A stretch of 24,000 nt of DNA from Magnetococcales bacterium (GTDB taxonomy: Bacteria; Pseudomonadota; Magnetococcia; Magnetococcales; JADGAP01), in the NCBI GenBank assembly GCA_015231965.1, contig JADGAP010000037.1:1-24000 (forward strand), written 5' to 3'. The position numbers were made by a program, and so were the translations under genes. Below, in pieces: positions 2,079 to 17,854 of the stretch. Every line of letters starts with the position of its first letter. Position 1 is the stretch's first letter. The notes beneath the pieces are model-generated. The model had not been told where the DNA came from and did not search any database. It worked only from the letters and a program-made list of their open reading frames with translations.

Positions 2079-3998
2079 ATGGGGCATGATGGGGATATTG
2101 GCGGCGTTTCTTCGTCTCGAAAATCGTTTGGGAGAAATCCATTGGACAGACGGATCCTGGTGGTGGACGACGAACTTGCGGTGCGGGGCGTGGTGGGGGA
2201 GATGCTCGCCCATCACGGGTGGGAGGCGGCGATGGTCAGCGGCTGGGATGAAGCCCTGGCGACGCTGGAGAACGATCCCCGCCCCCTGGTGTTGAGCGAT
2301 ATCCGGATGCCCGGTCGGAGCGGACTGGAGCTGCTGGGAGAGCTGCGACAGCGCCATCCCGAAACCCTGGTGCTGCTGATGACCGGTTTTCCCGAAATGG
2401 AGATGGTGCGTCAGGCGCTACAACAAGGGGCGTTCGACTTTTTGGTAAAGCCGGTGGACTCGGCGCTGCTGGTTCGGACGGTGGAGCGGGCGGCGGAAGT
2501 CTACCACCTGCGGCGGGAAAAAGAGCGCAACCAGCGCCTGCTGACCGCGATTTTCGAGAGCCTGGGCGAGGCGGTGGCGACCCTGGATCGGGAGGGGCGG
2601 ATCTTGGAACTGAACACCGCCGCCTGGTCGGTGCTGGGATTGGATCGGGAGCGGATCGGCCAAACCCTGGCCGAGGCCTCCCCCGGATTGAGCGAGGCGC
2701 TGGCTGCCCCCATCGCCGCCGTGGTGGGGGAGGGGGCGTCGTTCCGCGACCTCTCCATGACCTTGACCGTGGCGGGGGCGGAGCGTCAGGCGGGCCTCGC
2801 CCTGACCCCGCTGCGACGGAGCGGCGGCGAGGTGGACGGGGTGGTGCTGATCGCCCGGGATGAAACCCGGTTGCACACCCTGGAGCGGCAGTTGGGGGAG
2901 CGGCGGGAATTTTACGGCATGATCGGCGGCAGCCTGCCCATGCAGGAGGTCTACGATCTGATCGAAAAGCTGGCCGACGTGGAGACCACGGTGTTGATCA
3001 CCGGGGAAACCGGGGTGGGCAAGGAGGCGGCGGCCCGGGCGCTGCACGACCGGGGACGGCGGCGGGACAAACCCTTTGTCGCGGTCAACTGCGCCGCCCT
3101 CAACGAGGAGTTGTTGGAGAGCGAGCTGTTCGGCCACGTCAAGGGGGCCTTCACCCACGCCTTGCGGGACAAGCCGGGGCGGTTCAAGGCGGCGGATGGG
3201 GGGACTCTCTTTCTCGATGAGATCGGCGATATCTCTCCCCGCATGCAGGTGCGGCTGTTGCGCGTGCTGCAAGATAAAACCTTCGAGCCGGTGGGGGATT
3301 GGCGCTCCCAGAAGGTGGACGTTCGGGTTCTCGCCGCCACCCACCGCCATCTGGAGGAGTTGGTTTCCCAGGGGGAGTTTCGCGAGGATTTGTACTACCG
3401 CCTCAAGGTGGTGACTCTGGCCATCCCCCCCCTGCGGTCGCGCCGCGACGACCTCCCGCTGTTGGTGGAGCGGATGGTGGCCTCCTTCAATCGCAAGTTC
3501 AACAAGGTGATTCAGGGGGTGGACGGGGCGGTGATGCGGTTGTTCATGACCAGCGCTTGGCGGGGTAATGTGCGGGAGCTGCTCAACGTGTTGGAACACG
3601 CCGCCATTTTGTGCGCCGGTCGCCGCATCGGAGTGGCGGATCTGCCGCTGGAGTTTTGCGTCGCCCGGGAGTCCGACCGGGTGGCGCGGGGTCGTTTCGC
3701 CCCCGCCGCCAACGCCCCGCCGCCGCGGGCCGGTTTTTCTCCCGCTTCCGCCCCGCCGTTGGACGTTCCCAGGGAGCCGTCGCCCTCTCCCGAGCCGACC
3801 TCTTCCCCCGGAGAGACTGGCGAGGGGCATGGGGAGGCGGAAGAGGAGGGGCTGGAGGGTCAGGATGGACTGACCGCCGAGGAGATCTTCCGGGTGCTGA
3901 ACCAGTGTCAGTGGCGGGTGGGGGAGACGGCCAAGCAGTTGGGGGTGAGCCGCAGCACCTTGTGGCGCAAGATGCGTCAGTTCAAGCTGGGGCGATGA
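2079..3998 (+). CDS. sigma54-dependent transcriptional activator (NtrC family): REC-PAS-AAA+-Fis-type HTH
   Basis: REC: RILVVDDE...LSDIRMPGRSG...LVKP. PAS-like: LLTAIFESLGEAVATLDREGRILELN. AAA+: GETGVGKEAAARALH, GGTLFLDEIGD, ESELFGHVKGAFTHA, RVLAATHR, FREDLYYRL. C-terminal HTH: ETAKQLGVSRSTLWRKMRQF. The start is uncertain: ATG 2079 has no SD, whereas TTG 2142 follows GGGAGA (2130-2135) and gives a typical short leader before ILVVDD. Confidence 0.93.
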   Translation: MGHDGDIGGVSSSRKSFGRNPLDRRILVVDDELAVRGVVGEMLAHHGWEAAMVSGWDEALATLENDPRPLVLSDIRMPGRSGLELLGELRQRHPETLVLLMTGFPEMEMVRQALQQGAFDFLVKPVDSALLVRTVERAAEVYHLRREKERNQRLLTAIFESLGEAVATLDREGRILELNTAAWSVLGLDRERIGQTLAEASPGLSEALAAPIAAVVGEGASFRDLSMTLTVAGAERQAGLALTPLRRSGGEVDGVVLIARDETRLHTLERQLGERREFYGMIGGSLPMQEVYDLIEKLADVETTVLITGETGVGKEAAARALHDRGRRRDKPFVAVNCAALNEELLESELFGHVKGAFTHALRDKPGRFKAADGGTLFLDEIGDISPRMQVRLLRVLQDKTFEPVGDWRSQKVDVRVLAATHRHLEELVSQGEFREDLYYRLKVVTLAIPPLRSRRDDLPLLVERMVASFNRKFNKVIQGVDGAVMRLFMTSAWRGNVRELLNVLEHAAILCAGRRIGVADLPLEFCVARESDRVARGRFAPAANAPPPRAGFSPASAPPLDVPREPSPSPEPTSSPGETGEGHGEAEEEGLEGQDGLTAEEIFRVLNQCQWRVGETAKQLGVSRSTLWRKMRQFKLGR

Positions 3999-4040: not shown

Positions 4041-4265
4041 TTACGCGGGGAGCGTTTTGTGGGTTCCGTCGCAAAAGGGCAAGCCGGCGCTGTGGTCGCA
4101 GGCGCAGACCGCCACGTCGCCGGCTTCGGGCATCTCCACCTTGCGGGGGGTCTTGCCGGTTCCGTTTTTGTGGGAGCCGTCGCAAAAGGGACGGTTGGCG
4201 CTCTGACCGCACAGGCAGACGTAATGGGTTCCGGCGGGCAACGTCAATTTTATCGGCTTGGCCAT
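4041..4265 (-). CDS. CDGSH-type iron-sulfur domain protein (74 aa, two CDGSH motifs)
   Basis: MAKPIKL...CLCGQSANRPFCDGSH...CACDHSAGLPFCDGTH. ATG at 4265 has GAGGAA upstream. The rest of the 496-aa track ORF (to 5531) is antisense to mtfA and is rejected. Confidence 0.85.
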   Translation of the reverse strand: MAKPIKLTLPAGTHYVCLCGQSANRPFCDGSHKNGTGKTPRKVEMPEAGDVAVCACDHSAGLPFCDGTHKTLPA

Positions 4266-4397
4266 GGGGTTCCTCGCAAGGGGGGGGGAGGGGGGCAGAG
4301 AAGATTTTTCGTTCTCCTTCCTCGCAGCATAGCGCATGTTGGGGGCGGGGTTAAGCGTTGCTTCAGGGATGGCTGATTTTGGCGTCGGGGAGGGGTC

Positions 4398-5225
4398 GTG
4401 TTTTTTCGCGCCGGACGAGACAAGACGGAGGAACCCTCCCTGGCGGCGGAAGACGCCCGGCTGTGGCGGGAGTCGGTGGAGGGATTTTTTTTCCTGGAGG
4501 GGTTGACCGAGGCGGAGCATCGGCGCTTGCAGGGGTTGGCGGCGCTGTTTTTGCGAGAGAAAAAATTGGATCCGGTGGGGGGGCTGCGGCTGGAACGCCC
4601 CATGGCCCTGCAATTGGCGGCCCAGGCTTGCCTGCCGCTGTTGCACCGGGAGTGGTCGTGGTACGACAACTGGCGGACGATCATCCTCTATCCCGGGGAG
4701 TTTCTCCCCGACCGATGGGTGGCCGACGAGGCGGGGGTGTTGCATCGTCCGGGGCCCCATTCCGGCGAGGCGTGGCCCAATGGCCCCATCATTCTGTCGT
4801 GGGACGACGTGGCGGCGGACCTGGAAGATGCCGCCGACTATCCCCGCAATGTCGCGATTCATGAAATATGTCACCAACTCGATGTTCGGAGCGGGGGCTT
4901 CGACGGGGTTCCGGAACTGCCCCGGGAGGTGGGGCGGGGGGAGTGGATCGAGACCTTCAACCGGGCCTTCAAGGTCTTTCGCAAACGGTTGGACAAGGGC
5001 CGCGATACCTGGATGGACCCCTACGGCGAGGAGAGCCCGGCGGAATTTTTCGCTGTCGCCAGCGAAACCTTTTTTGTCGATCCCTGGGGGCTGTGGGAGG
5101 ATTTTCCTGAAATTTACGACCTGCTGACCCGCTATTACCGGCAGGATCCAAAGAACCGACGCCCCTTGGAAGAGAATGTGCCCGAGGGCGGCCCGCCGCC
5201 GGGGGATGAATTTTCTTGGGATTGA
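4398..5225 (+). CDS. mtfA: MtfA-like zinc peptidase (peptidase family M90, Mlc titration factor A family)
   Basis: SWDDV...NVAIHEICHQLD (HExxH)...DGVPEL...MDPYGEESPAEFFAVASETFF...YYRQDP matches the M90/MtfA arrangement. GTG 4398 is preceded by GGGGAGGGG. Confidence 0.82.
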   Translation: MFFRAGRDKTEEPSLAAEDARLWRESVEGFFFLEGLTEAEHRRLQGLAALFLREKKLDPVGGLRLERPMALQLAAQACLPLLHREWSWYDNWRTIILYPGEFLPDRWVADEAGVLHRPGPHSGEAWPNGPIILSWDDVAADLEDAADYPRNVAIHEICHQLDVRSGGFDGVPELPREVGRGEWIETFNRAFKVFRKRLDKGRDTWMDPYGEESPAEFFAVASETFFVDPWGLWEDFPEIYDLLTRYYRQDPKNRRPLEENVPEGGPPPGDEFSWD

Positions 5226-5644
5226 ACGCTGGAACCCTCCCCGTCGTCCAATGCGGACGCACGAAGTTGTGGATGATGGATATCCAAGGTCCGCTGAATT
5301 CCCTCCGTCGTTTTTGCGTAGGAATGAGTTCCCCGAAAGAACCCCGTTCAAGCCGCGAGGCGATTGGTCGTCCTTGGAGACTGTCGCGATGACTTGAGCG
5401 GGTTGTGGAGCATTTTTGCGGGTGAAGGCCCGGGGGCGGGAGGCGGGATGGTCGTTTCTCCCCCGGTTTAAGCCTCCCCCCTTCCCCGTGTCCCGATCCA
5501 TCGCGGCATTCCGTGACATGAGCGAGGCCATGGGGGCGGATTTAAGCCCTTGCCAAGCCTGCCCTCTTTCTGTAGAAATCTATTAGTCATTATTCGCGGC
5601 ATGGGTGGATTATTCCCCGCGTTTATCATGGATGGAGCCCCTTC

Positions 5645-6226
5645 ATGAGCCATGTTCCCATACCCCCATGGAACGTCCAAGGCGTCTTGCCGCCTGTCAA
5701 CGCCCCGGACAGCACGTCCATGGATCGTTCTCCCTACCGGGTTTCCCTCATCGAACTGATTGAGCGATTTGCCACCTCCGACGAACGCCGCAACATTTTG
5801 CAAGGTTTTCTGCGTTACCGCGCCGAACTTCACGCCCTGGGGCTGACCCAGGGATTCCAATGGGTAAACGGCAGCTTCGCCGAACAGGTGGAGACTTTGG
5901 AAAATCGTCCCCCAAACGATATGGACGTGGTAACATTTTATGTACTTCCCAGCGATGTGTTGGAGGAGGAACTTGTTCGCCTCAATCCCAGTCTATTTGA
6001 TCATGATCGGATGAAGCAGAAATTCCTCGTTGATAGTTATTATGAGCCATTAAGTGGAATGCCTCCGGAATATCTGATCGAAACGTCCTCCTATTGGTAT
6101 AGTCTGTGGTCCCACCGGCGCACGATGGCTTGGAAGGGATTCCTGCAGATCAACCTAGCGCCCGATGAGGATGAGGCGGCAAACCTCGAACTCATGAACC
6201 GGATGCCGAGCGGAGCCCAACCATGA
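5645..6226 (+). CDS. Pol-beta-fold nucleotidyltransferase-like protein (from memory resembles the DUF6932 type)
   Basis: VNGSFAEQVETLENRPPNDMDVV shows the GS...DxD minimal nucleotidyltransferase signature. The N-terminus GVLPP...SPYRVSLIELIERF..S..RRNILQGF fits that family as I recall it. ATG 5645 has GGAG at 5634-5637. The segment is less GC-rich than its flanks. Confidence 0.65.
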   Translation: MSHVPIPPWNVQGVLPPVNAPDSTSMDRSPYRVSLIELIERFATSDERRNILQGFLRYRAELHALGLTQGFQWVNGSFAEQVETLENRPPNDMDVVTFYVLPSDVLEEELVRLNPSLFDHDRMKQKFLVDSYYEPLSGMPPEYLIETSSYWYSLWSHRRTMAWKGFLQINLAPDEDEAANLELMNRMPSGAQP

Positions 6227-7155
6227 ACATTGAAGAGCACCATCATCTTCTTGCGGAACGCAAGGAATTGACGCGCTTGCTGGAAAAGGCTCCTCCCCAG
6301 AAAGCCATCCTTCGCATGTCCCTTCAGTCGCGGCTGGAGTCGGTGAACGCCGAACTGGGAAAAGCGCCTGCTTCCAAACGCGCCCCCTTCCGCTCCCGCC
6401 TGACGTTTCGTGGCACCCCGGTACTGGGAAGTCACGGCATCCATGCGGCGTTCGCCACCTCCGCCGTGGAAAAAATGACCGACGCCATCGCCGCGTTCGT
6501 CGCCAGTTTCGCGGGTCCGCTGAACGCCAGGGGAGTTCTTCCCAACCGCGACAAAAATCAGTTGATGATTATCGGTACGGCCATCGGTTCGTTTGGTTTC
6601 GAGTTGGAAGAACGGATTACCAACGATGAAATGGCGTTGGATGTTCCATCTCCCGTGCAAGTCGCCACGGAGCAGGTTTGCGATTTGATGCAGGCTTCGG
6701 TCGAGAGTGACGATGATCAGCTTGCGGTGTTGGCTTCAGGGACGGATGAACGTGCAATCAAGGAGTTGCATGGCTTCATCAAGGTGCTGGCGGACAATGG
6801 GGCGGTTTGCAACCTTTCAACTGGAGAGCGTACCTTCGGCTTTCAATCGATTGAACAAGTTCGTCGTAGCTTTGAACGATTGAACCCCGACAATCTTAAG
6901 GAGACAGAGGAAACATTCTCCGGTCAATTCCTGGGCGTCCTTCCGGAAAAGAGAGAGTTTGAATTCAGCGCCTTCCCGGAGAGTCTTTTGATTCGCGGCA
7001 AGGTGAACCGAGTGATCAAGGATGCCTCGGAGATCAACCGGCTCCTGAATGGTCGGTGCCGGATCACCGTCCACGCAACCCGTGCGGGCAAGGGCAGACC
7101 CAGTTATCAGCTACTCGACTACGTCGAGGAACCTTCGTTCAACGACCTGCCGTGA
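6223..7155 (+). CDS. hypothetical protein (310 aa), N-terminal coiled coil, no recognised domain
   Basis: Its ATG overlaps the upstream stop (ATGA 6223-6226), indicating translational coupling. The composition is protein-like throughout and it is convergent with ubiB. Confidence 0.7.
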   Translation: MNIEEHHHLLAERKELTRLLEKAPPQKAILRMSLQSRLESVNAELGKAPASKRAPFRSRLTFRGTPVLGSHGIHAAFATSAVEKMTDAIAAFVASFAGPLNARGVLPNRDKNQLMIIGTAIGSFGFELEERITNDEMALDVPSPVQVATEQVCDLMQASVESDDDQLAVLASGTDERAIKELHGFIKVLADNGAVCNLSTGERTFGFQSIEQVRRSFERLNPDNLKETEETFSGQFLGVLPEKREFEFSAFPESLLIRGKVNRVIKDASEINRLLNGRCRITVHATRAGKGRPSYQLLDYVEEPSFNDLP

Positions 7156-7200
7156 GAAATCAAGCGAAATGGCGCGGAGCGACGGAGGAATTCCCCAACC

Positions 7201-10451: not shown

Positions 10452-12974
10452 TCACGTTGCGGCGGGGCTCTCCAGCGCCTCCAGCAGCCGCCGGGCCGCC
10501 TGATTGAGGGGATCGTCCCGCAACACCCGCTGGTAAAGCTCCCGTGCCTCCTCCGTCCGCCCCAGGGAGACGAGAAAACGGGCCGCCTTGATCAACGTCA
10601 CGCCGTCGCCGGAGACCACCGCCAAATAGCGGCGATAGGCGTCCAGCGCCCCCGCCTGGTCCCCCAGCAGACGCAACAACTCGGCGTAGGGCGGCACATA
10701 GGCCGGGGAAAGTTCGGCCATGCGCCGCAACACCGCCCGCCCCTCCTCGTAAAGGCCGCGCCCCAGGGTCAGGCCGGTCATGCGCTGCAAGGCGTCAGGG
10801 AGCAACTCGGGATGGTCCACCTGACGATATTCGGCCAGGGCGGCCTCGGGATCGTTTTCCAACTCCCGCAACAGGCCCCGGGCCAGATGCAGGGCCGGTT
10901 CGCGATCCGCCATGGCCACCGAGGGGAGGGAGGCGACGAAATCCCGCAGCTTTTCCAACTCTTTTTGCAGAAAAAACGATTGGGCCTTGGCCCGCACCGT
11001 CGCCGGGGTGGGTTGGGTCTGCCAGGAGCGCTTGGACAACTCCTCGCCATGAAACAGCGCCTCGTGGGCGGCGAGAAACGCCTCCAGCCGCCGGACGACG
11101 GCGGGGGGATGGTCCGCCAGGGGGCGGCCGCAACGGTCGAGATAGACCTGGGCCCGCCCGGGGGTTTGGTCCCGCTCCCACTGGGCGAAAAGAAGCTTGA
11201 AGTCGGGCCGCTCCTTCTCCTCCTCCACTCGGGAGCGCACCCGCTGTCGGGCGGCGTCGATGAACTTCACCACCTCGGCGGCGCTCTCCCGATAAATTTC
11301 GTAGTAACGCCGCCCGGTGCGCTCCACCTCGGCGACGGACCACGCCTTCTCCTTGTCCGGGCGGGAGAGGCGGAGGAATTCCGATACCCCCCAGCGTCGC
11401 ACCATCAGGGACCAGGGCCCCAGCCGCTGATTCAACTCCTCTTCCAGACGATCCATCTTGTCCTTGCAGGAAAAATCCGCCGGTTTGCCCTGGCGTCCGA
11501 AGAGCCGGTCGTTGAGCTCGATCCCCTGGGCCGCCAGGGCGCGAATCTCCTCCACCACGCCGCGCACCCGGAACAACTCCCGCTCCACCGCCTCGCAGTG
11601 GGCCAGCCGCTCCGCCCGACCGGGGAGGGGGAGGCGTTCCCACAAGGTTTCCCGCGCCGAGCGGGGGAGGGGGGCGATGGCCACCGACTCCAGGGGTTGA
11701 TGCCGCACGTGGGGAACTTTCGCCGCCCCGGGGGCGGGGTTGATCACCGCGCAGCCCCGCATTGCGCCGAACTCGGCCACCTGCCCCAGGCTGGGGATGG
11801 CGTGGTAGAAGTCGTACCAGGTTTCGGCCATCCAGCCGCCGTTGGTCTCCACCTGCAACTCGGCCAACTCCACCGAGGGGCCCAGGGCGCTTTCGGCGCT
11901 GCCCTTGGCGTAGATGTACCCCTCGCGGCTGAAGCAGAGATCCAGCCCCGCCAGCACCACGTTGCGGCACCCCATCTCGACCATCAGCCCCAGCAGTTGA
12001 TGGGAGACGGTGATGCCGGGAAAATAATAATTGTCCGGATTGTTTTCGGTGGGCCAGGGAAAGCGGTAGCCCATGTAGGCCGATCGACCCCGCCAGGGGG
12101 CCAGCAACCAGGGGTGGACGTGGAAAAAGTTGACGTAGAGGCTCTCTTGCCAAAAATCCAGCATCTCCTTGCCGTTGTGGAAGATGATGTCGTAGGGGTC
12201 GATGGCCATGAACAGGTCGGGGATCACCCCCGCCTCCCGCAACTGCCGGGCGTTGCGCGACACCGCCGCCACCAGCAGATGCTCCCGATGGGCCTTGACC
12301 CAGGGAATGACCGCCTCCCACGACGGCCCCCCGGCGAGCAAAATCCCCGTCGCCCCGGGCAGAACGTCCCGCAGCAGCGGTGCCGGGGTGAGGTTTTCCG
12401 CCAGATTTTCCATGCCCCGCAGCAGGAAAATCTGGTTGCCCATGTCCATGTCCACCTGGATCTTGATCATCCCCAGGTCGTGCTTGAAACGGTTCCACAA
12501 GGGGACGTAGCCCGGATGGAAGCCATCCGCCGCCGCCAGGGATTTATAGGCCCGCACCCGGTCGGAGTAGTAATAGTCGCTGACGCCCAGCTTTGTCGCC
12601 GCCTCCACCCACTCGCCGGGAGGGAGAAGCAACATCTGGTGGGGCAGACCCTCGGGCAGAACCTCCCGCCGGATGCGGGGGATCAGCGCCTCGAACTCGA
12701 CGAAAAGGTAGCGGCTGCCGGCGGGGAGGGGTTGGCGCAAAATGTAGCGGATCAACAGTCCGCCGTCGCAGCCGACGAAAAGATAGAGGGCGTCCTCTTC
12801 CCAGAGGTCCTCCAGGTAGATGCGGCGAAACACCGCCTCCGAGCCGACGCCGGAAAAACTTTCCCGGTTGAGGGCGGGCAGATAGGGTTCGCCGAAGGCG
12901 TTGCGCAAAAAGGGTCCGAAGTCGTCGGTCATGATGATGGCGCGGCGCGGGAAAAAGTGGTATTGATTCACCAA
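10452..12974 (-). CDS. Maf-type (DUF115/MptE-like) putative flagellin glycosyltransferase fused to C-terminal TPR repeats
   Basis: ILLAGGPSWEAVIPWVKAHREHLLVAAVSRNARQLREAGVIPDLFMAIDPYD reproduces the GxGPS...PD...D core of DUF115/Maf proteins. The C-terminus has TPR-like repeats (AEYRQV..., LYEEGRAV..., AYRRYLAV...). The start is uncertain: TTG 12974, GTG 12971 or ATG 12932. Confidence 0.78.
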   Translation of the reverse strand: MVNQYHFFPRRAIIMTDDFGPFLRNAFGEPYLPALNRESFSGVGSEAVFRRIYLEDLWEEDALYLFVGCDGGLLIRYILRQPLPAGSRYLFVEFEALIPRIRREVLPEGLPHQMLLLPPGEWVEAATKLGVSDYYYSDRVRAYKSLAAADGFHPGYVPLWNRFKHDLGMIKIQVDMDMGNQIFLLRGMENLAENLTPAPLLRDVLPGATGILLAGGPSWEAVIPWVKAHREHLLVAAVSRNARQLREAGVIPDLFMAIDPYDIIFHNGKEMLDFWQESLYVNFFHVHPWLLAPWRGRSAYMGYRFPWPTENNPDNYYFPGITVSHQLLGLMVEMGCRNVVLAGLDLCFSREGYIYAKGSAESALGPSVELAELQVETNGGWMAETWYDFYHAIPSLGQVAEFGAMRGCAVINPAPGAAKVPHVRHQPLESVAIAPLPRSARETLWERLPLPGRAERLAHCEAVERELFRVRGVVEEIRALAAQGIELNDRLFGRQGKPADFSCKDKMDRLEEELNQRLGPWSLMVRRWGVSEFLRLSRPDKEKAWSVAEVERTGRRYYEIYRESAAEVVKFIDAARQRVRSRVEEEKERPDFKLLFAQWERDQTPGRAQVYLDRCGRPLADHPPAVVRRLEAFLAAHEALFHGEELSKRSWQTQPTPATVRAKAQSFFLQKELEKLRDFVASLPSVAMADREPALHLARGLLRELENDPEAALAEYRQVDHPELLPDALQRMTGLTLGRGLYEEGRAVLRRMAELSPAYVPPYAELLRLLGDQAGALDAYRRYLAVVSGDGVTLIKAARFLVSLGRTEEARELYQRVLRDDPLNQAARRLLEALESPAAT

Positions 12975-13151
12975 GCCCGTCTTAATTCATGAATTTCTGC
13001 TGCAAGCGCACCAGGAGCGCGCCAGGACTGCGTTGCGCTCGGTCGCCGATCCTCACCGCGCAATGAGCGCGGTTCCGGTCGTCGCCCTTCGCGCGCCTTG
13101 TCCTGGCGCGCCCTGGACGCTTTCGCGACGAAATTCATGAATAAGACGGGC
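12975..13151. repeat. 177-bp imperfect palindromic (MITE-like) element with 22-23 nt terminal inverted repeats
   Basis: GCCCGTCTTAATTCATGAATTTC (12975-12997) matches the reverse complement of GAAATTCATGAATAAGACGGGC (13130-13151) with one indel. Subterminal GCGCGCCAGGAC blocks are also inverted. It lies between divergent genes. Confidence 0.6.
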
Positions 13152-13238
13152 CAAGACAAAAAGCCCCAGGGGGAGTATCGGCTCAAGCGACGCCGAGGCG
13201 CCACCCTTTTTCCATCGTCCGGAAGCGATTATCCCCCC

Positions 13239-15332
13239 ATGAAGAGTCTTTGGAACGACCGCGTCGCCGCCGACATGACCGCCCGCCTCCTGGAAAGCTG
13301 CGGCGAACCCCTGGCGTGGCGCACCTACGCCAGTCGGCTGTTGGGGGCCTCGCCGGCGCTGGTGCTGCACGGCGGGGGCAACAGTTCGGTCAAAACCGCG
13401 TGGCCCACCCTGACCGGCGAGTCGGTTCCGGTGGTCTGCGTCAAGGCGTCGGGGTGGGATTTGGGGGCCATCGAGCCGGAGGGCCACGTGCCGCTGGAGT
13501 TGTCCCGGCTCCTCCCCCTGATCCGCCTGGAGGCCCTGGACGACGGGGCGATGGTCAATCAATTGCGCCTGGCGCTGTTCGACCATCAGGCCCCCACGCC
13601 GTCGCTGGAGGCGCTGCTCCACGCCTTTTTGCCGCCGATCTTCATCGATCATTGCCACTCCGAGGCGATTTTGGCCCTGACCAATCGTCCCGACGGGGAG
13701 GAGACGGCGCGGCGGGCGTTGGGGCCGGGGGTGATCGTGCTGCCCTACGTCCGCCCCGGATTTCCCCTGGCCAAGGCGGCGGCGGCGGCCTTCGCCGCCC
13801 ATCCCGACGCCGAGGGGATGGTGTTGGCCCGTCATGGACTGGTCACGTGGGGGAAAACCGCGCGGGAATCCTACGAATCCACCATCGCCCTGGTCTCTCG
13901 GGCGGAGGCCTTTCTCGGGCGGGAGTTGGAAGCCTCCCCCCCCTCCCCGGTGCCGCAGGTCGGCGCGGTTCCGGCGCTGGACGAGGCGGAACGGCGCTAT
14001 CGCGAGACGGCCCCCCTGGTGCGGGGGGTGTTGTGCGGTGAAGCGCCGGAAGTGGGGATTTCCCATCGTTTCGTGCTGCGTCCGTTGCTCGACGAGCCGG
14101 TGTTGCGACAACTGGCCATGCCCGGGGCGCGGGAGTTGGCCCTCTCCCCCCCGCTCACCGCCGACCATCTGGTGCGCTTGAAGCCGTGGCCGCTGTGGGT
14201 GGAGGATCCCGCCCAACTGGCCGAGGGGGTGGCCGACTACGCCCGACGTTATCAGGAGTACACGGCGCGCCACGCCCATCGTCTGCCGACGGGGGCGCGG
14301 TTGGCCGATCCCCTGCCCCGGGTGATCATGATCCCCGGCGTGGGCATGATGTGCGCCGGTCGAACCGCCCAGGAGGCCGACGCGGTGCGGGATCTGGCCG
14401 AGCAGAATCTTCTGGTCAAGGGGGCGATGGCGGCGGCGAGCGTCCCCTATCAGGGGTTGGACGAAGGGCATCTGTTCGACATGGAGTATGGCGTCACCCA
14501 GTTGGCCAAGCTCCACGCCCCGTCCCAGCCCCTGGCCGGTTCCACCGCCCTGGTGACGGGGGCGGCGGGGGCCATCGGTTGGGGGCTTTGCGAAACCCTG
14601 CTGCAAAACGGCTGCCACGTCGCCGCCTCGGACCTCCCCGGCGAACGGCTCAACGATTTGGCCGTGGCCTTGAGCGCCCGGCATCCCGGACGCCTCCTGC
14701 CGGTGGCCATGGATGTCACCGACCCCGCCTCGGTGCGGCAGGGGTTCGGCGTGGCGACGGATGCCTGGGGCGGTCTGGACATCGTCGTCCCCAACGCCGG
14801 GCTGGCCCACGTCGCCGGGCTGGAGGAGCTGGAGTTGGAAGCCTTCCGCCGTCTCCACCGGGTCAACGTGGAGGGGACGCTGCTGGTCCTGACCGAGGCC
14901 TCCCGGATGTTTCGTCGCCAGGGGTGCGGCGGCGACGTGGTGTTGATCTCCACCAAGAACGTCTTCGCCCCGGGGGCGCAGTTCGGGGCCTACAGCGCCA
15001 CCAAGGCGGCGGCCCATCAACTGGCCCGCATCGCCTCGCTGGAGCTGGCCCCCCTGGGGGTGCGGGTCAACATGGTCGCCCCCGACGCGGTCTTTTCCGG
15101 CGGCGCCGCCCGCTCCGGGCTGTGGGCCGAGGTGGGGCCGGGGCGGATGAAGGCCCGGGGTCTGGATGAAAAAGGGCTGGAGGAGTATTATCGTCAGCGC
15201 AATCTGCTCAAGGCCCGGGTGACGGCGGAACACGTGGGGCGGGCGGTGCTGTTTTTCGTCACCCGCCAAACCCCCACCACCGGGGCCACCCTGCCGGTGG
15301 ACGGCGGCCTCCCCGACGCCACCCCAAGGTGA
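13239..15332 (+). CDS. bifunctional class II aldolase/adducin-domain + short-chain dehydrogenase protein (rhamnulose-1-phosphate aldolase/SDR-like family)
   Basis: The N-terminus MKSLWNDRVAADMT...YASRLLGASPALVLHGGGNSSVKT is typical of this bifunctional family. The C-terminal SDR has ALVTGAAGAIG (TGxxxGxG) and YSATKAA (YxxxK). ATG 13239 is chosen over the 13098 track start, which lies inside the palindromic element. Confidence 0.88.
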   Translation: MKSLWNDRVAADMTARLLESCGEPLAWRTYASRLLGASPALVLHGGGNSSVKTAWPTLTGESVPVVCVKASGWDLGAIEPEGHVPLELSRLLPLIRLEALDDGAMVNQLRLALFDHQAPTPSLEALLHAFLPPIFIDHCHSEAILALTNRPDGEETARRALGPGVIVLPYVRPGFPLAKAAAAAFAAHPDAEGMVLARHGLVTWGKTARESYESTIALVSRAEAFLGRELEASPPSPVPQVGAVPALDEAERRYRETAPLVRGVLCGEAPEVGISHRFVLRPLLDEPVLRQLAMPGARELALSPPLTADHLVRLKPWPLWVEDPAQLAEGVADYARRYQEYTARHAHRLPTGARLADPLPRVIMIPGVGMMCAGRTAQEADAVRDLAEQNLLVKGAMAAASVPYQGLDEGHLFDMEYGVTQLAKLHAPSQPLAGSTALVTGAAGAIGWGLCETLLQNGCHVAASDLPGERLNDLAVALSARHPGRLLPVAMDVTDPASVRQGFGVATDAWGGLDIVVPNAGLAHVAGLEELELEAFRRLHRVNVEGTLLVLTEASRMFRRQGCGGDVVLISTKNVFAPGAQFGAYSATKAAAHQLARIASLELAPLGVRVNMVAPDAVFSGGAARSGLWAEVGPGRMKARGLDEKGLEEYYRQRNLLKARVTAEHVGRAVLFFVTRQTPTTGATLPVDGGLPDATPR

Positions 15333-16514: not shown

Positions 16515-16605
16515 CCGGGGCCGGATGAGAGCCCTTGGTTTCTTCATGATCCGAGGGGAGCGGGGACTTTGCCACTCTCGTTAGGAATGACGACCCCAAC
16601 CCGGC

Positions 16606-17628
16606 TCAATGGCCAGGTTTTTGTTGCGGAATCGCCTTGCCCAGCAGATCGCTGACCTTGGAAAAAATGGCCTCGTGGCTCTCTTTTTCCAGGCGCGCCT
16701 TTTCCAGATCGACCGTGGTCTCGTCCTTCTTCAAAATAAAATTCCGCTCCGTCTTGGAAAGCTCCTGAATGATGGCCTTGACCGATTCGGTTTCCTTCAT
16801 GGCGATGGCGGTCATCAAGGCCACCTGCTTGCATTCCAGGCTGGTCAACTCGTTTTGGTAATATTTGATGTGATCATGGCTGAGTTTGTAGAGCCGGAGA
16901 AAAAATAGGGAGAGCAGTTCGACCATCAAGACCATCGACACCCGTGGCAGATAGATTTCCATAATAAAATCCGGTTTAACATATTTCGGATCCAGGGGCG
17001 CGGTTGGTGCGCTCCCCATTGAGAGCACCGACCACAAAATATAGACGCCAAACACCGCCAGCAAAATTCCGATGATCAGGTTGACCTTTCCTCTTCTTAA
17101 TAAGCTTGAAATCTCGTTGATAATCCTTTGTCTTGTATCATAAAAATAGTCGTCAATTCTTTTCATGCGATGGTCGTCCCCGACCTTTTCCTTGATCTCC
17201 CCGAGCAACTCTTCTCCGGCGCTTTTCTTGGCGGAATCCAGAATCGACTCCACAATTATTTTCCGATCATTTTCATCAATCCCTTGCTTGGCATTTTGGA
17301 TGGTGAAAATCAAATTTTTGAGTTCATTTATTGTTTGATGAAATGCAGGGTATAAATTATCTTTTCTTGAGCGCGCTATAAGCTCGGAAAGATCATCCCT
17401 ATGATTTCCTGATAGCGTGCGCCACAACATGAAAATCACTGAATATATTGCGAGCCCAAAGATAAATATCTTAAAATAATTCTTTGTTGCCAGCGCACTA
17501 ATAATATTAGCAGCATGGTCACGGGTATCTTCCGAAGTGTACATAATCGATAAAATCACCGTAAGCATCATCGCAATTACCAACAAAGCTTTTGAAACTT
17601 TATGTATACGATCTGGATTTATAAACAT
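16606..17628 (-). CDS. hypothetical membrane protein (340 aa; about four predicted TM helices plus coiled-coil segments), strongly AT-rich foreign-looking gene
   Basis: ATG 17628 has AGAGGTG upstream. Hydrophobic helices: ALLVIAMMLTVILSIMY, IFIFGLAIYSVIFMLW, VNLIIGILLAVFGVYILWSVL, VSMVLMVELLSLFFLRLY, separated by charged K/E-rich helical regions. Codon usage (AAA, ATT, TTT, GAT) is unlike the rest of the window. Confidence 0.8.
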   Translation of the reverse strand: MFINPDRIHKVSKALLVIAMMLTVILSIMYTSEDTRDHAANIISALATKNYFKIFIFGLAIYSVIFMLWRTLSGNHRDDLSELIARSRKDNLYPAFHQTINELKNLIFTIQNAKQGIDENDRKIIVESILDSAKKSAGEELLGEIKEKVGDDHRMKRIDDYFYDTRQRIINEISSLLRRGKVNLIIGILLAVFGVYILWSVLSMGSAPTAPLDPKYVKPDFIMEIYLPRVSMVLMVELLSLFFLRLYKLSHDHIKYYQNELTSLECKQVALMTAIAMKETESVKAIIQELSKTERNFILKKDETTVDLEKARLEKESHEAIFSKVSDLLGKAIPQQKPGH

Positions 17629-17854
17629 GGATCACCTCTTGACGGGAAATTAAGAGTCCTAGCCTCAACATCACAAAACTGCTTGACAGCGTAATCGGGT
17701 TATTGTTTTGACTCAAGGAAAATCATGCAGAAAATATTCTCAACCCATAATAATCCACATCTCCTCCCATGATCGCCAGTGGCGACGGGTGGACGCATCG
17801 CGCCGGATTCCAGTCGTCGACGTGGTGGAGGGTTTCTTTCCACGGGAGAGACGG

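Follow-up and report, generated by a model that had tools for sequence, protein, structure and literature searches.

The two overlapping genes at positions 5645 to 7155 of the DNA stretch analysed here (24,000 nucleotides (nt) of contig JADGAP010000037.1, assembly GCA_015231965.1, from a Magnetococcales bacterium; hereafter the window) constitute a near-obligate, co-diverging unit. The first gene (A) encodes what is very probably an active minimal nucleotidyltransferase of the DNA polymerase beta (Pol-beta) fold, from a branch without a studied member, and the second (B) a soluble partner for which structure prediction suggests a coiled coil and an oligonucleotide/oligosaccharide-binding (OB) fold. 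The pair is a divergent branch of the catalogued, uncharacterised candidate PDC-M63, and is not categorically new. As regards its function, the evidence tips slightly towards a toxin-antitoxin (TA)-like, abortive-infection type anti-phage module. An earlier reading of the same letters, made without database searches (the sequence-only reading), had proposed a horizontally acquired two-component TA or anti-phage module with a novel partner; the idea of such a module is supported, the in-silico results on catalytic residues, conservation as neighbours and housekeeping matches of the partner all falling on its side. The genes are arranged as follows:

5645-6226, + strand: gene A, an open reading frame (ORF) of 193 amino acids (aa) with an ATG start, for a predicted minimal Pol-beta-fold nucleotidyltransferase of DUF6932.

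6223-7155, + strand: gene B, an ORF of 310 aa with an ATG start, for the partner without a curated domain.

6223-6226, + strand: ATGA stop/start overlap of A and B, read from the sequence and indicating translational coupling.

The linkage between both genes is evident whichever of them is used as the anchor. Among approximately 119 loci anchored on B, obtained from 80 species-representative genomes and 31 viral contigs, A lies directly upstream and on the same strand in about 115; of the four exceptions, one is at a contig edge, two retain remnants of A and one lacks A altogether. All of the 78 confident A matches in viral contigs are followed by B downstream, and a DUF6932 gene was directly upstream of B in the first seven contexts retrieved via B homologues (7/7). 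The ATGA overlap, which the sequence-only reading had already pointed out and which is confirmed, is also a common trait of the family, since 122 of 135 non-redundant A-B junctions overlap, with an exact 4-nt overlap in 84 of the 135; the same arrangement, overlap included, is found again in well over 100 loci that are independent of one another. Moreover, pairwise distances between A proteins and between B proteins are strongly correlated (Mantel r 0.887, with a permutation maximum of 0.118), which means that the partners have not been swapped. The co-conservation of the two genes as neighbours is thus borne out from both sides. A third conserved gene of the cassette was sought and not found, the downstream genes being variable; two candidates, a 274-aa ORF at locus L001 and a 264-aa ORF upstream of A at locus L200, turned out to be unrelated to each other. 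In Magnetococcus sp. DMHC-1 (L001/L002, 7002-7826), the 274-aa ORF, which has no Pfam match, overlaps the B stop by 4 nt, generating a three-gene overlapping string that is not present in the window.

Protein A matches the Pfam family DUF6932 (PF22014) with 110.2 bits and an E-value of 1.5e-31 (gathering threshold, 27 bits), its residues 7-170 covering profile positions 1-142 of 142, and the same family is matched by 56 of 56 A homologues; the likeness to DUF6932 proteins suggested by the sequence-only reading is correct. The protein is also recognised by the PADLOC model PDC-M63A (E 2.9e-11) and by phrog_9194 (E 2e-37). A full-text literature search returned no paper mentioning DUF6932 or PF22014. 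The following features were located in gene A:

5870-5926, + strand: catalytic motif of A, hG[GS]-x14-DhDh, with G76-S77 at 5870-5875 and D92-x-D94 at 5918-5926.

6032-6034, + strand: D130, a candidate third metal-binding carboxylate located on the predicted strand 129-135 (Asp in 131 and Glu in 1 of 132 homologues).

6092-6139, + strand: YWYSLWSHRR...WKG motif, Y150-G165, specific to the family.

The VNGSFAEQ...NDMDVV signature noticed in the first ORF is indeed present, and corresponds to G76-S77 and D92-x-D94. Residues G76, S77, F78, D92 and D94 are invariant in the 56 aligned A homologues (56/56), in which D130 is conserved at 90% or more, and a larger set of non-redundant homologues from genomic loci likewise shows no exception at G76, S77, D92 and D94 (132/132). 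In agreement with the [DE]h[DE]h signature of the Pol-beta superfamily, G76-S77 is followed by D92-M-D94-V after a spacer of 14 residues; the classical Pol-beta hG[GS]-DhDh spacer has 9-13 residues. Within the family-specific motif, Y150, H157, W163 and G165 are invariant, W151 and K164 are kept in 131/132 and R159 in 125/132, and this stretch could possibly form a putative substrate-binding surface.

In the AlphaFold2 (AF2) model of A, which has a predicted local distance difference test score (pLDDT) of 93.8, the GS pair comes right after strand 70-75, DxD opens strand 93-99 and D130 sits on strand 129-135, the arrangement (strand-turn-helix-strand for the catalytic motif) expected for a Pol-beta-fold nucleotidyltransferase. 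When this model was compared with the PDB using Foldseek, the best match was the putative nucleotidyltransferase 2rff (probability 0.90, E 0.029), and Pol-beta-fold enzymes were enriched among the weak matches, which include, at lower positions, HI0073 (1no5), MntA (7ae9), CdnC (6u7b, 6p8v), CCA-adding enzymes and FAM46C. Pentatricopeptide-repeat matches, which appeared in PDB sequence and profile searches of A, contained no individually significant stretch and were treated as repeat artefacts.

As for protein B, the window copy is matched by no Pfam, NCBIfam or PADLOC model (the last searched to E 1), and PDB sequence and profile searches found nothing. It belongs to phrog_18731 (E 7.8e-64), and an exhaustive profile search collected 1,945 clusters at 50% identity with E <=0.001, 665 of them with E <=1e-30; among the 150 best, all proteins are close to 300 aa in length and fusions are absent. 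Its AF2 model (pLDDT 94.2; predicted template modelling score (pTM) 0.85) is divided into three parts:

6229-6363, + strand: B residues 3-47, a two-helix coiled-coil hairpin (AF2 helices 3-22 and 28-47).

6391-6879, + strand: B residues 57-219, an alpha/beta middle domain of unplaced fold, defined by invariant columns and AF2 elements.

6895-7128, + strand: B residues 225-302, a C-terminal OB-fold-like beta-barrel of order b1-b2-b3-helix-b4-b5, according to AF2 topology and Foldseek.

The predicted helical hairpin agrees with the coiled coil previously seen at the start of the second ORF. The middle domain carries the invariant motifs TFRGxP (F62, G64, P66) and GSFGFE (G122, F124, G125, F126), and a search of the PDB with it gave no significant match. 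The barrel resembles, in the PDB, the anticodon-binding domain of LysRS/AspRS, RPA, Stn1 and ExoVII (Foldseek probability 0.99-1.00, E about 5e-3 to 3e-2) and, in BFVD, cold-shock, single-stranded DNA-binding protein (SSB) and eIF5A domains. Taking into account that the conserved residues R244, F246, E247, F248, G259 and K260 are placed on strands 2-3 of the barrel, the usual place for nucleic-acid binding in OB-folds, we infer from the model that B may bind nucleic acids. Membrane segments were predicted in neither B nor A. The HEPN-type Rx4-6H motif is not conserved in B, no His column exceeding 74% in the alignment; the His of the R177...H183 and R278...H284 patterns is kept in 20/80 and 25/80 sequences, respectively.

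Two other assignments of B were discarded. A class I release-factor fold was dismissed, the matches spanning about 300 columns at a root-mean-square deviation above 20 Å, and a relationship to SnoaL, suggested by a lenient Pfam scan of 80 homologues (17/80 sub-threshold, best E 0.0039), was not taken as evidence. Foldseek also finds a fold like that of B, near full-length (E 1.6e-12 to 5e-9, 288-331 aligned columns), in three phage proteins: a DUF6575-domain protein of Siphoviridae sp. ctoic9 (A0A8S5QA00), A0A8S5T657 of Myoviridae sp. ctLIM9 and Q6NE06 of Leptospira phage LE1. They differ from B, however, in that identity is 10-15% and the TM-score about 0.4, and they are themselves uncharacterised. 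The description of B as a novel partner can be kept insofar as the protein is uncharacterised and matches no housekeeping family, but B is not unseen, being a member of phrog_18731 and a remote relative of PDC-M63B and PDC-M32A.

Relatives of B have been found in at least 258 species-representative genomes, including those of Pseudomonadota, Planctomycetota, Verrucomicrobiota, Chlorobiota, Acidobacteriota, Clostridia and Dehalococcoidia among bacteria and of Methanoperedens and Methanothrix among archaea, as well as in 94 viral contigs (searched via A) and three plasmids; when A and three variants of B were compared by tblastn with 50,697 genomes of isolated phages, no match was obtained. The positions that the pair occupies are stereotyped. 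In 28 of 80 species loci it lies inside a type I restriction-modification (R-M) operon, with all genes on the same strand in the order hsdM-hsdS-[A-B]-hsdR, and the stop codon of hsdS is often separated from the start of A by 3 nt; a check with Pfam places HsdS immediately upstream in 12/75 cases and HsdR immediately downstream in 7-8/77. Other immediate neighbours are MmeI, Eco57I and type ISP enzymes, DarT, Macro, GmrSD, AbiEi, AbiEii, Schlafen/AlbA_2 and MazE. In prophages, CI-like repressors, CII-like activators and RecE-type exonucleases prevail among the closest genes, and, when only non-redundant prophage loci with enough upstream sequence are counted, a CI-like repressor is found directly upstream on the same strand in 51 of 61, mostly within 600 nt. 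The placement of the pair in immunity loci is strongly non-random, and homologues do sit in defence contexts.

Several of these loci show additional peculiarities. In type I R-M operons at L008 (7950-8507) and L009 (6041-6523), a DUF6933 (PF22016) gene is located directly downstream of B; the DUF6933-bearing R-M operon also holds HipA_2/DUF3037 and a PAAR-Tle1-like type VI secretion system effector pair. The near-consecutive Pfam accessions of DUF6932 and DUF6933 may reflect a shared curation source. At L010 (2846-4964), in an R-M operon containing A-B, HsdS is N-terminally fused to a Polbeta-type nucleotidyltransferase, and this fusion is preceded by an NTase_sub_bind (HEPN-like) gene, which amounts to a module resembling minimal nucleotidyltransferase (MNT)-HEPN pairs fused into hsdS. 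At L005 (5411-6867; Sagittula sp. MA-2, CP126145.1), the pair is located between the genes for the large terminase (GpA) and the portal of a small, integrase-bearing element with a VapE-like primase, a cargo position unlike that of the post-CI prophage copies. Finally, at L282 (Pseudomonas aeruginosa CP109682.1, 349378-350839), in a cultured clinical strain (2017-45-169), the pair is just inside an integrase-bounded element ordered integrase, BamE-like protein, BRCT-domain protein, A, B and helix-turn-helix (HTH) protein, with A and B annotated as hypothetical; this 425-kb 'plasmid' record also contains lptF and lptG, genes that plasmids do not usually carry. Besides this strain and Sagittula sp. 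MA-2, cultured carriers of the pair include Aeromonas simiae CIP 107798 (L013), Comamonas granuli NBRC 101663 (L020) and Cupriavidus pauculus 19C6 (L051).

The candidate to which the pair is related belongs to a set of 145 PDC candidates obtained from guilt-by-embedding in BREX, DISARM and type I R-M systems (Payne et al., bioRxiv 10.1101/2024.01.29.577857), a basis that agrees with, and is partly independent of, the neighbourhood result described here. Like PDC-M63, the present pair consists of two genes, is found embedded in type I R-M operons, is carried on prophages and matches the A model, PDC-M63A being matched by 56 of 56 A homologues (best E 2.7e-14). They differ in the partner: the window B matches no PADLOC model, and more members of its family resemble PDC-M32A (28/80 sequences matched) than PDC-M63B (7/80, best E 3.9e-7), which indicates remote homology to PDC-M63B and not membership. 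PDC-M32 has been noted in Sinorhizobium prophages. Since B has no match there, PADLOC would not call the window locus.

A further clue is provided by the way in which the pair decays. Of 76 species-level loci with an intact B, about 11 have lost A or carry it in disrupted form; in the opposite direction, a truncated B was seen at one of the 60 prophage loci anchored on A. At L062 (6652-8921), for instance, A has gone and hsdS abuts an intact B directly; at L070 (6100-8897), a DUF2326/ABC-3C CTD10 protein is encoded upstream of a short C-terminal remnant of A, again with B intact; and at L080 (7770-8918) an in-frame fusion joins the N-terminal 33 residues of A to B. The loss of A while B remains intact fits A as toxin and B as antidote, and the asymmetry is suggestive of A being the costly component.

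On this basis, a mechanism can be proposed in which A would act as effector through its enzymatic activity, with B as the regulator or sensor of A. The pair would be expressed constitutively together with other immunity genes, within type I R-M operons or behind the prophage repressor in lysogens, and A and B would form a stoichiometric complex in which B restrains or directs A while its OB-fold binds nucleic acid. An infection cue would then free or activate A, which would nucleotidylate a target of the cell or of the phage, stopping growth or phage replication; RNA or tRNA would be the most plausible substrate, a protein a less likely one. The anti-phage outcome, the formation of a complex, the identity of the toxic partner and the substrate are all put forward here as what the sequences suggest, and our confidence in the specific substrate is much lower than in the defence or TA-like character of the pair.

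The opposite polarity, similar to that of type VII TA systems such as MntA-HepT, appears unlikely. In such a scheme B would inhibit growth, for example through its OB-fold, and A would neutralise it by nucleotidylation. The enzyme-first order and the tight translational coupling are those of mntA-hepT, MNT-type proteins (2rff, HI0073 1no5, MntA 7ae9) are among the best fold matches of A, and the near-invariant T61, T119 and S123 of B are potential acceptors. However, B contains neither the HEPN Rx4-6H motif nor any other familiar toxin domain, and it is full-length and high-scoring in the roughly 11 loci in which A is disrupted or absent, L062, L070 and L080 among them; if B were a toxin left without its antidote, these loci should kill their hosts, which counts against this polarity.

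Little credence is likewise given to a plain addiction TA cassette, which would retain mobile DNA or an R-M operon without any direct anti-phage activity. The overlapping two-gene architecture, the carriage on prophages, plasmids and integrase-bounded elements, and the lack of a phage phenotype when PDC-M63AB is deleted in Escherichia coli would all be in accordance with it; the insertion points are nevertheless specific (hsdS-hsdR in 28/80, behind cI in 51/61), as is typical of genes for exclusion and abortive infection such as prrC and rexAB and not of generic addiction modules, and B has no DNA-binding autoregulator domain of the kind that type II antitoxins usually carry.

It is also improbable that the cassette serves a mobile element in some way unrelated to defence, either by modulating lysogeny, induction or restriction, or by processing nucleic acids during replication or repair. 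CI, CII and a RecE-like exonuclease, the prophage neighbours, are typical of an early/immunity region, and DNA ends are conceivable substrates for an OB-fold protein combined with a nucleotidyltransferase. Against this, stand-alone copies exist amid housekeeping genes (in the window and at L001, L003 and L007), and the cassette is present in archaea and in R-M operons without phage regulatory genes, all of which argues for an autonomous function, independent of the life cycle of any one element.

Signalling through a nucleotide second messenger of the CBASS or Pycsar type, in which A would make the signal and B would sense it as effector, is very improbable: the weak fold matches of A to the CD-NTase CdnC (6u7b, 6p8v) and a superficially similar layout of enzyme plus partner are all that recalls it, whereas A is far smaller than CD-NTases, B has no nuclease, TIR, patatin, membrane-spanning, SAVED, STING or CARF domain, and the SMODS/CBASS models are unmatched in PADLOC and Pfam, which leaves the CBASS-type idea of the sequence-only reading unsupported.

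Several observations weigh against the proposal of an anti-phage module with A as its effector. With respect to the enzyme, every PDB fold match of A has an E-value above 0.01; Pfam, searched to E 5, returned solely DUF6932 and no nucleotidyltransferase family; and the alignment by hhalign of the A profile with the Polbeta-domain neighbour from L010 was negative. At the sequence level, A shows no homology to any characterised nucleotidyltransferase family. With respect to the partner, the E-values of the OB-fold matches are modest, and no effector, sensor or DNA-binding regulator domain was recognised in B. The enzyme-first order is the reverse of that of AbiE and MenAT and matches that of MNT-HEPN, in which the enzyme is the antitoxin, and the decay asymmetry, which compares chromosomes of metagenome-assembled genomes (MAGs) with prophage contigs, is not statistically clean. 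As for the locus, no sigma-70-like promoter was detected near the pair in the window, where it has neither an R-M nor a repressor neighbour. The functional proposal as a whole draws on genomic context. Moreover, in the sole published test found, deletion of PDC-M63AB from a prophage of E. coli NILS69 left the infectivity of 10 virulent double-stranded DNA phages unchanged, a panel of limited diversity according to the authors of that test.

Within the window, the pair is a stand-alone insert amid housekeeping genes, as are the copies at L001, L003 and L007. Its surroundings are the following:

5226-5644: spacer 5' of A, 419 nt from the Peptidase_M90 gene to A, with a GGAG Shine-Dalgarno sequence at 5634-5637.

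5600-7200: compositionally distinct segment holding the A-B pair, with lower GC and lower GC at third codon positions (GC3).

A GGAG motif followed by a 7-nt spacer precedes the start codons of both A and B. Across 5600-7200 the GC content is 0.51-0.59, compared with 0.62-0.69 in the flanks, and GC3 is 0.603 in A and 0.646 in B, against 0.757 in the mtfA-like Peptidase_M90 gene, 0.814 in the CDGSH gene, 0.881 in ubiB/ABC1 and 0.814 and 0.791 in the next two genes of the ubi cluster, so that the pair is 0.15-0.25 lower in GC3 than its neighbours. The segment is less GC-rich than mtfA and ubiB, as had been seen from the letters, and the pair does converge on the ubi operon, the ubiB stop being 45 nt from its end. 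The window B is 100% identical to a "hypothetical" protein of a Magnetococcales MAG, A being the adjacent hypothetical protein on the same contig. The nearest relatives of the pair, from other Magnetococcales and one unbinned contig, occupy unrelated contexts. The GC3 offset and these unrelated contexts support the segment being a horizontally acquired two-gene cassette that acts as one mobile unit, as the sequence-only reading had supposed. No tRNA gene, Rfam element, convincing terminator, att-like site or flanking direct or inverted repeat was detected around the pair. In an empty-site comparison, the closest metagenomic UbiB relative was 56% identical, and no locus had the Peptidase_M90 gene beside ubiB.

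Elsewhere in the window, a low-GC stretch at about 16600-17800 contains a 340-aa ORF (16606-17628, - strand) with a GC of 0.435 and a GC3 of 0.54, the window average being 0.62; local GC near it drops to 0.385, a dip far stronger than that at the A-B pair. No sequence relative of this ORF was found among solved structures, and it is probably another foreign insert. A real gene for a CDGSH iron-sulfur protein of about 69 aa (Pfam zf-CDGSH, E 1.5e-18) is located at 4041-4250 on the - strand, and the 496-aa ORF at 4041-5531 on the same strand, which lies opposite the Peptidase_M90 gene (4398-5225, + strand), seems to be a GC-rich shadow. Ordinary-looking genes encode an NtrC-family sigma-54 response regulator (2079-3998, + strand), a DUF115 protein, so named in the source annotation (10452-12974, - strand), and a class II aldolase-like domain fused to a short-chain dehydrogenase (13098-15332, + strand).

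If the proposal of a TA-like anti-phage module is right, this would be a widespread immune or TA module, present in bacteria, archaea, prophages and plasmids, neither protein of which has a characterised relative. What is added here to the listing in PADLOC is the near-obligate linkage of the pair, its co-divergence, the invariant catalytic residues, the OB-fold predicted in the partner and the two stereotyped homes; taking into account that PADLOC models overlook the branch found in the window, censuses of defence systems undercount it. A bolder and rather doubtful suggestion is that the DUF6932 enzyme and its coiled-coil/OB-fold partner make up a mechanistically new immune class, distinct from CBASS, MenT/AbiE and MNT-HEPN, in which a nucleotidyltransferase effector would be checked by a nucleic-acid-sensing partner and co-expressed with restriction enzymes and prophage repressors; such a class would be a functional counterpart of RexAB and PrrC, spread over at least 258 bacterial and archaeal species.

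In comparison with known systems, the pair shares with AbiEi/AbiEii and MenA/MenT the concept of a nucleotidyltransferase as the growth-arresting effector of a two-gene module, MenT toxins being known to nucleotidylate tRNA acceptor ends. It differs from them in that B has neither the winged-helix architecture of AbiEi/COG5340 nor an HTH match, and it is set apart from AbiE/MenAT because A does not belong to AbiEii/DUF1814 and the two genes stand in the opposite order. Nor is the pair a CBASS system, since both the SMODS cyclase and a familiar effector are missing. The likeness to MNT-HEPN modules (MntA-HepT, a type VII TA system, and HI0073/HI0074) is closer in architecture, with a small GS...DxD enzyme encoded first in an overlapping two-gene operon, MNT structures among the best fold matches of A, and a common occurrence of both in defence islands. 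However, A matches no NTP_transf_2 or Polbeta model and has N- and C-terminal extensions with family-specific motifs, and the absence of a conserved HEPN Rx4-6H motif from B separates the pair from MNT-HEPN.

The two systems whose genomic positions are reproduced are PrrC/RloC and lambda Rex. Both rexAB, behind cI in lambda, and prrC, between hsdS and hsdR, serve abortive infection or exclusion and are expressed in cells that no phage has infected. Like PrrC/RloC genes, the pair is inserted between hsdS and hsdR with no change of strand, and the resemblance of the B OB-fold model to the anticodon-binding domain of LysRS/AspRS hints at a connection with tRNA, which is speculative. It differs from PrrC/RloC in having no ABC-ATPase or HEPN nuclease domain, its enzyme being a nucleotidyltransferase. 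With respect to lambda Rex, there is no homology, no Rex structure is among the listed fold matches of A or B, and RexB is a polytopic membrane protein, while A and B have no membrane segment. The likeness to cI-rexA-rexB resides in the arrangement, a two-gene cassette that, in 51 of the 61 prophage loci, directly follows a CI-like repressor read in the same direction, a position that implies expression in the lysogen and, by analogy, would be compatible with co-transcription with cI. In sum, the two homes of the pair, between hsdS and hsdR and behind a prophage repressor, mirror those of PrrC and RexAB, and this gives rise to clear expectations on the timing of its expression.

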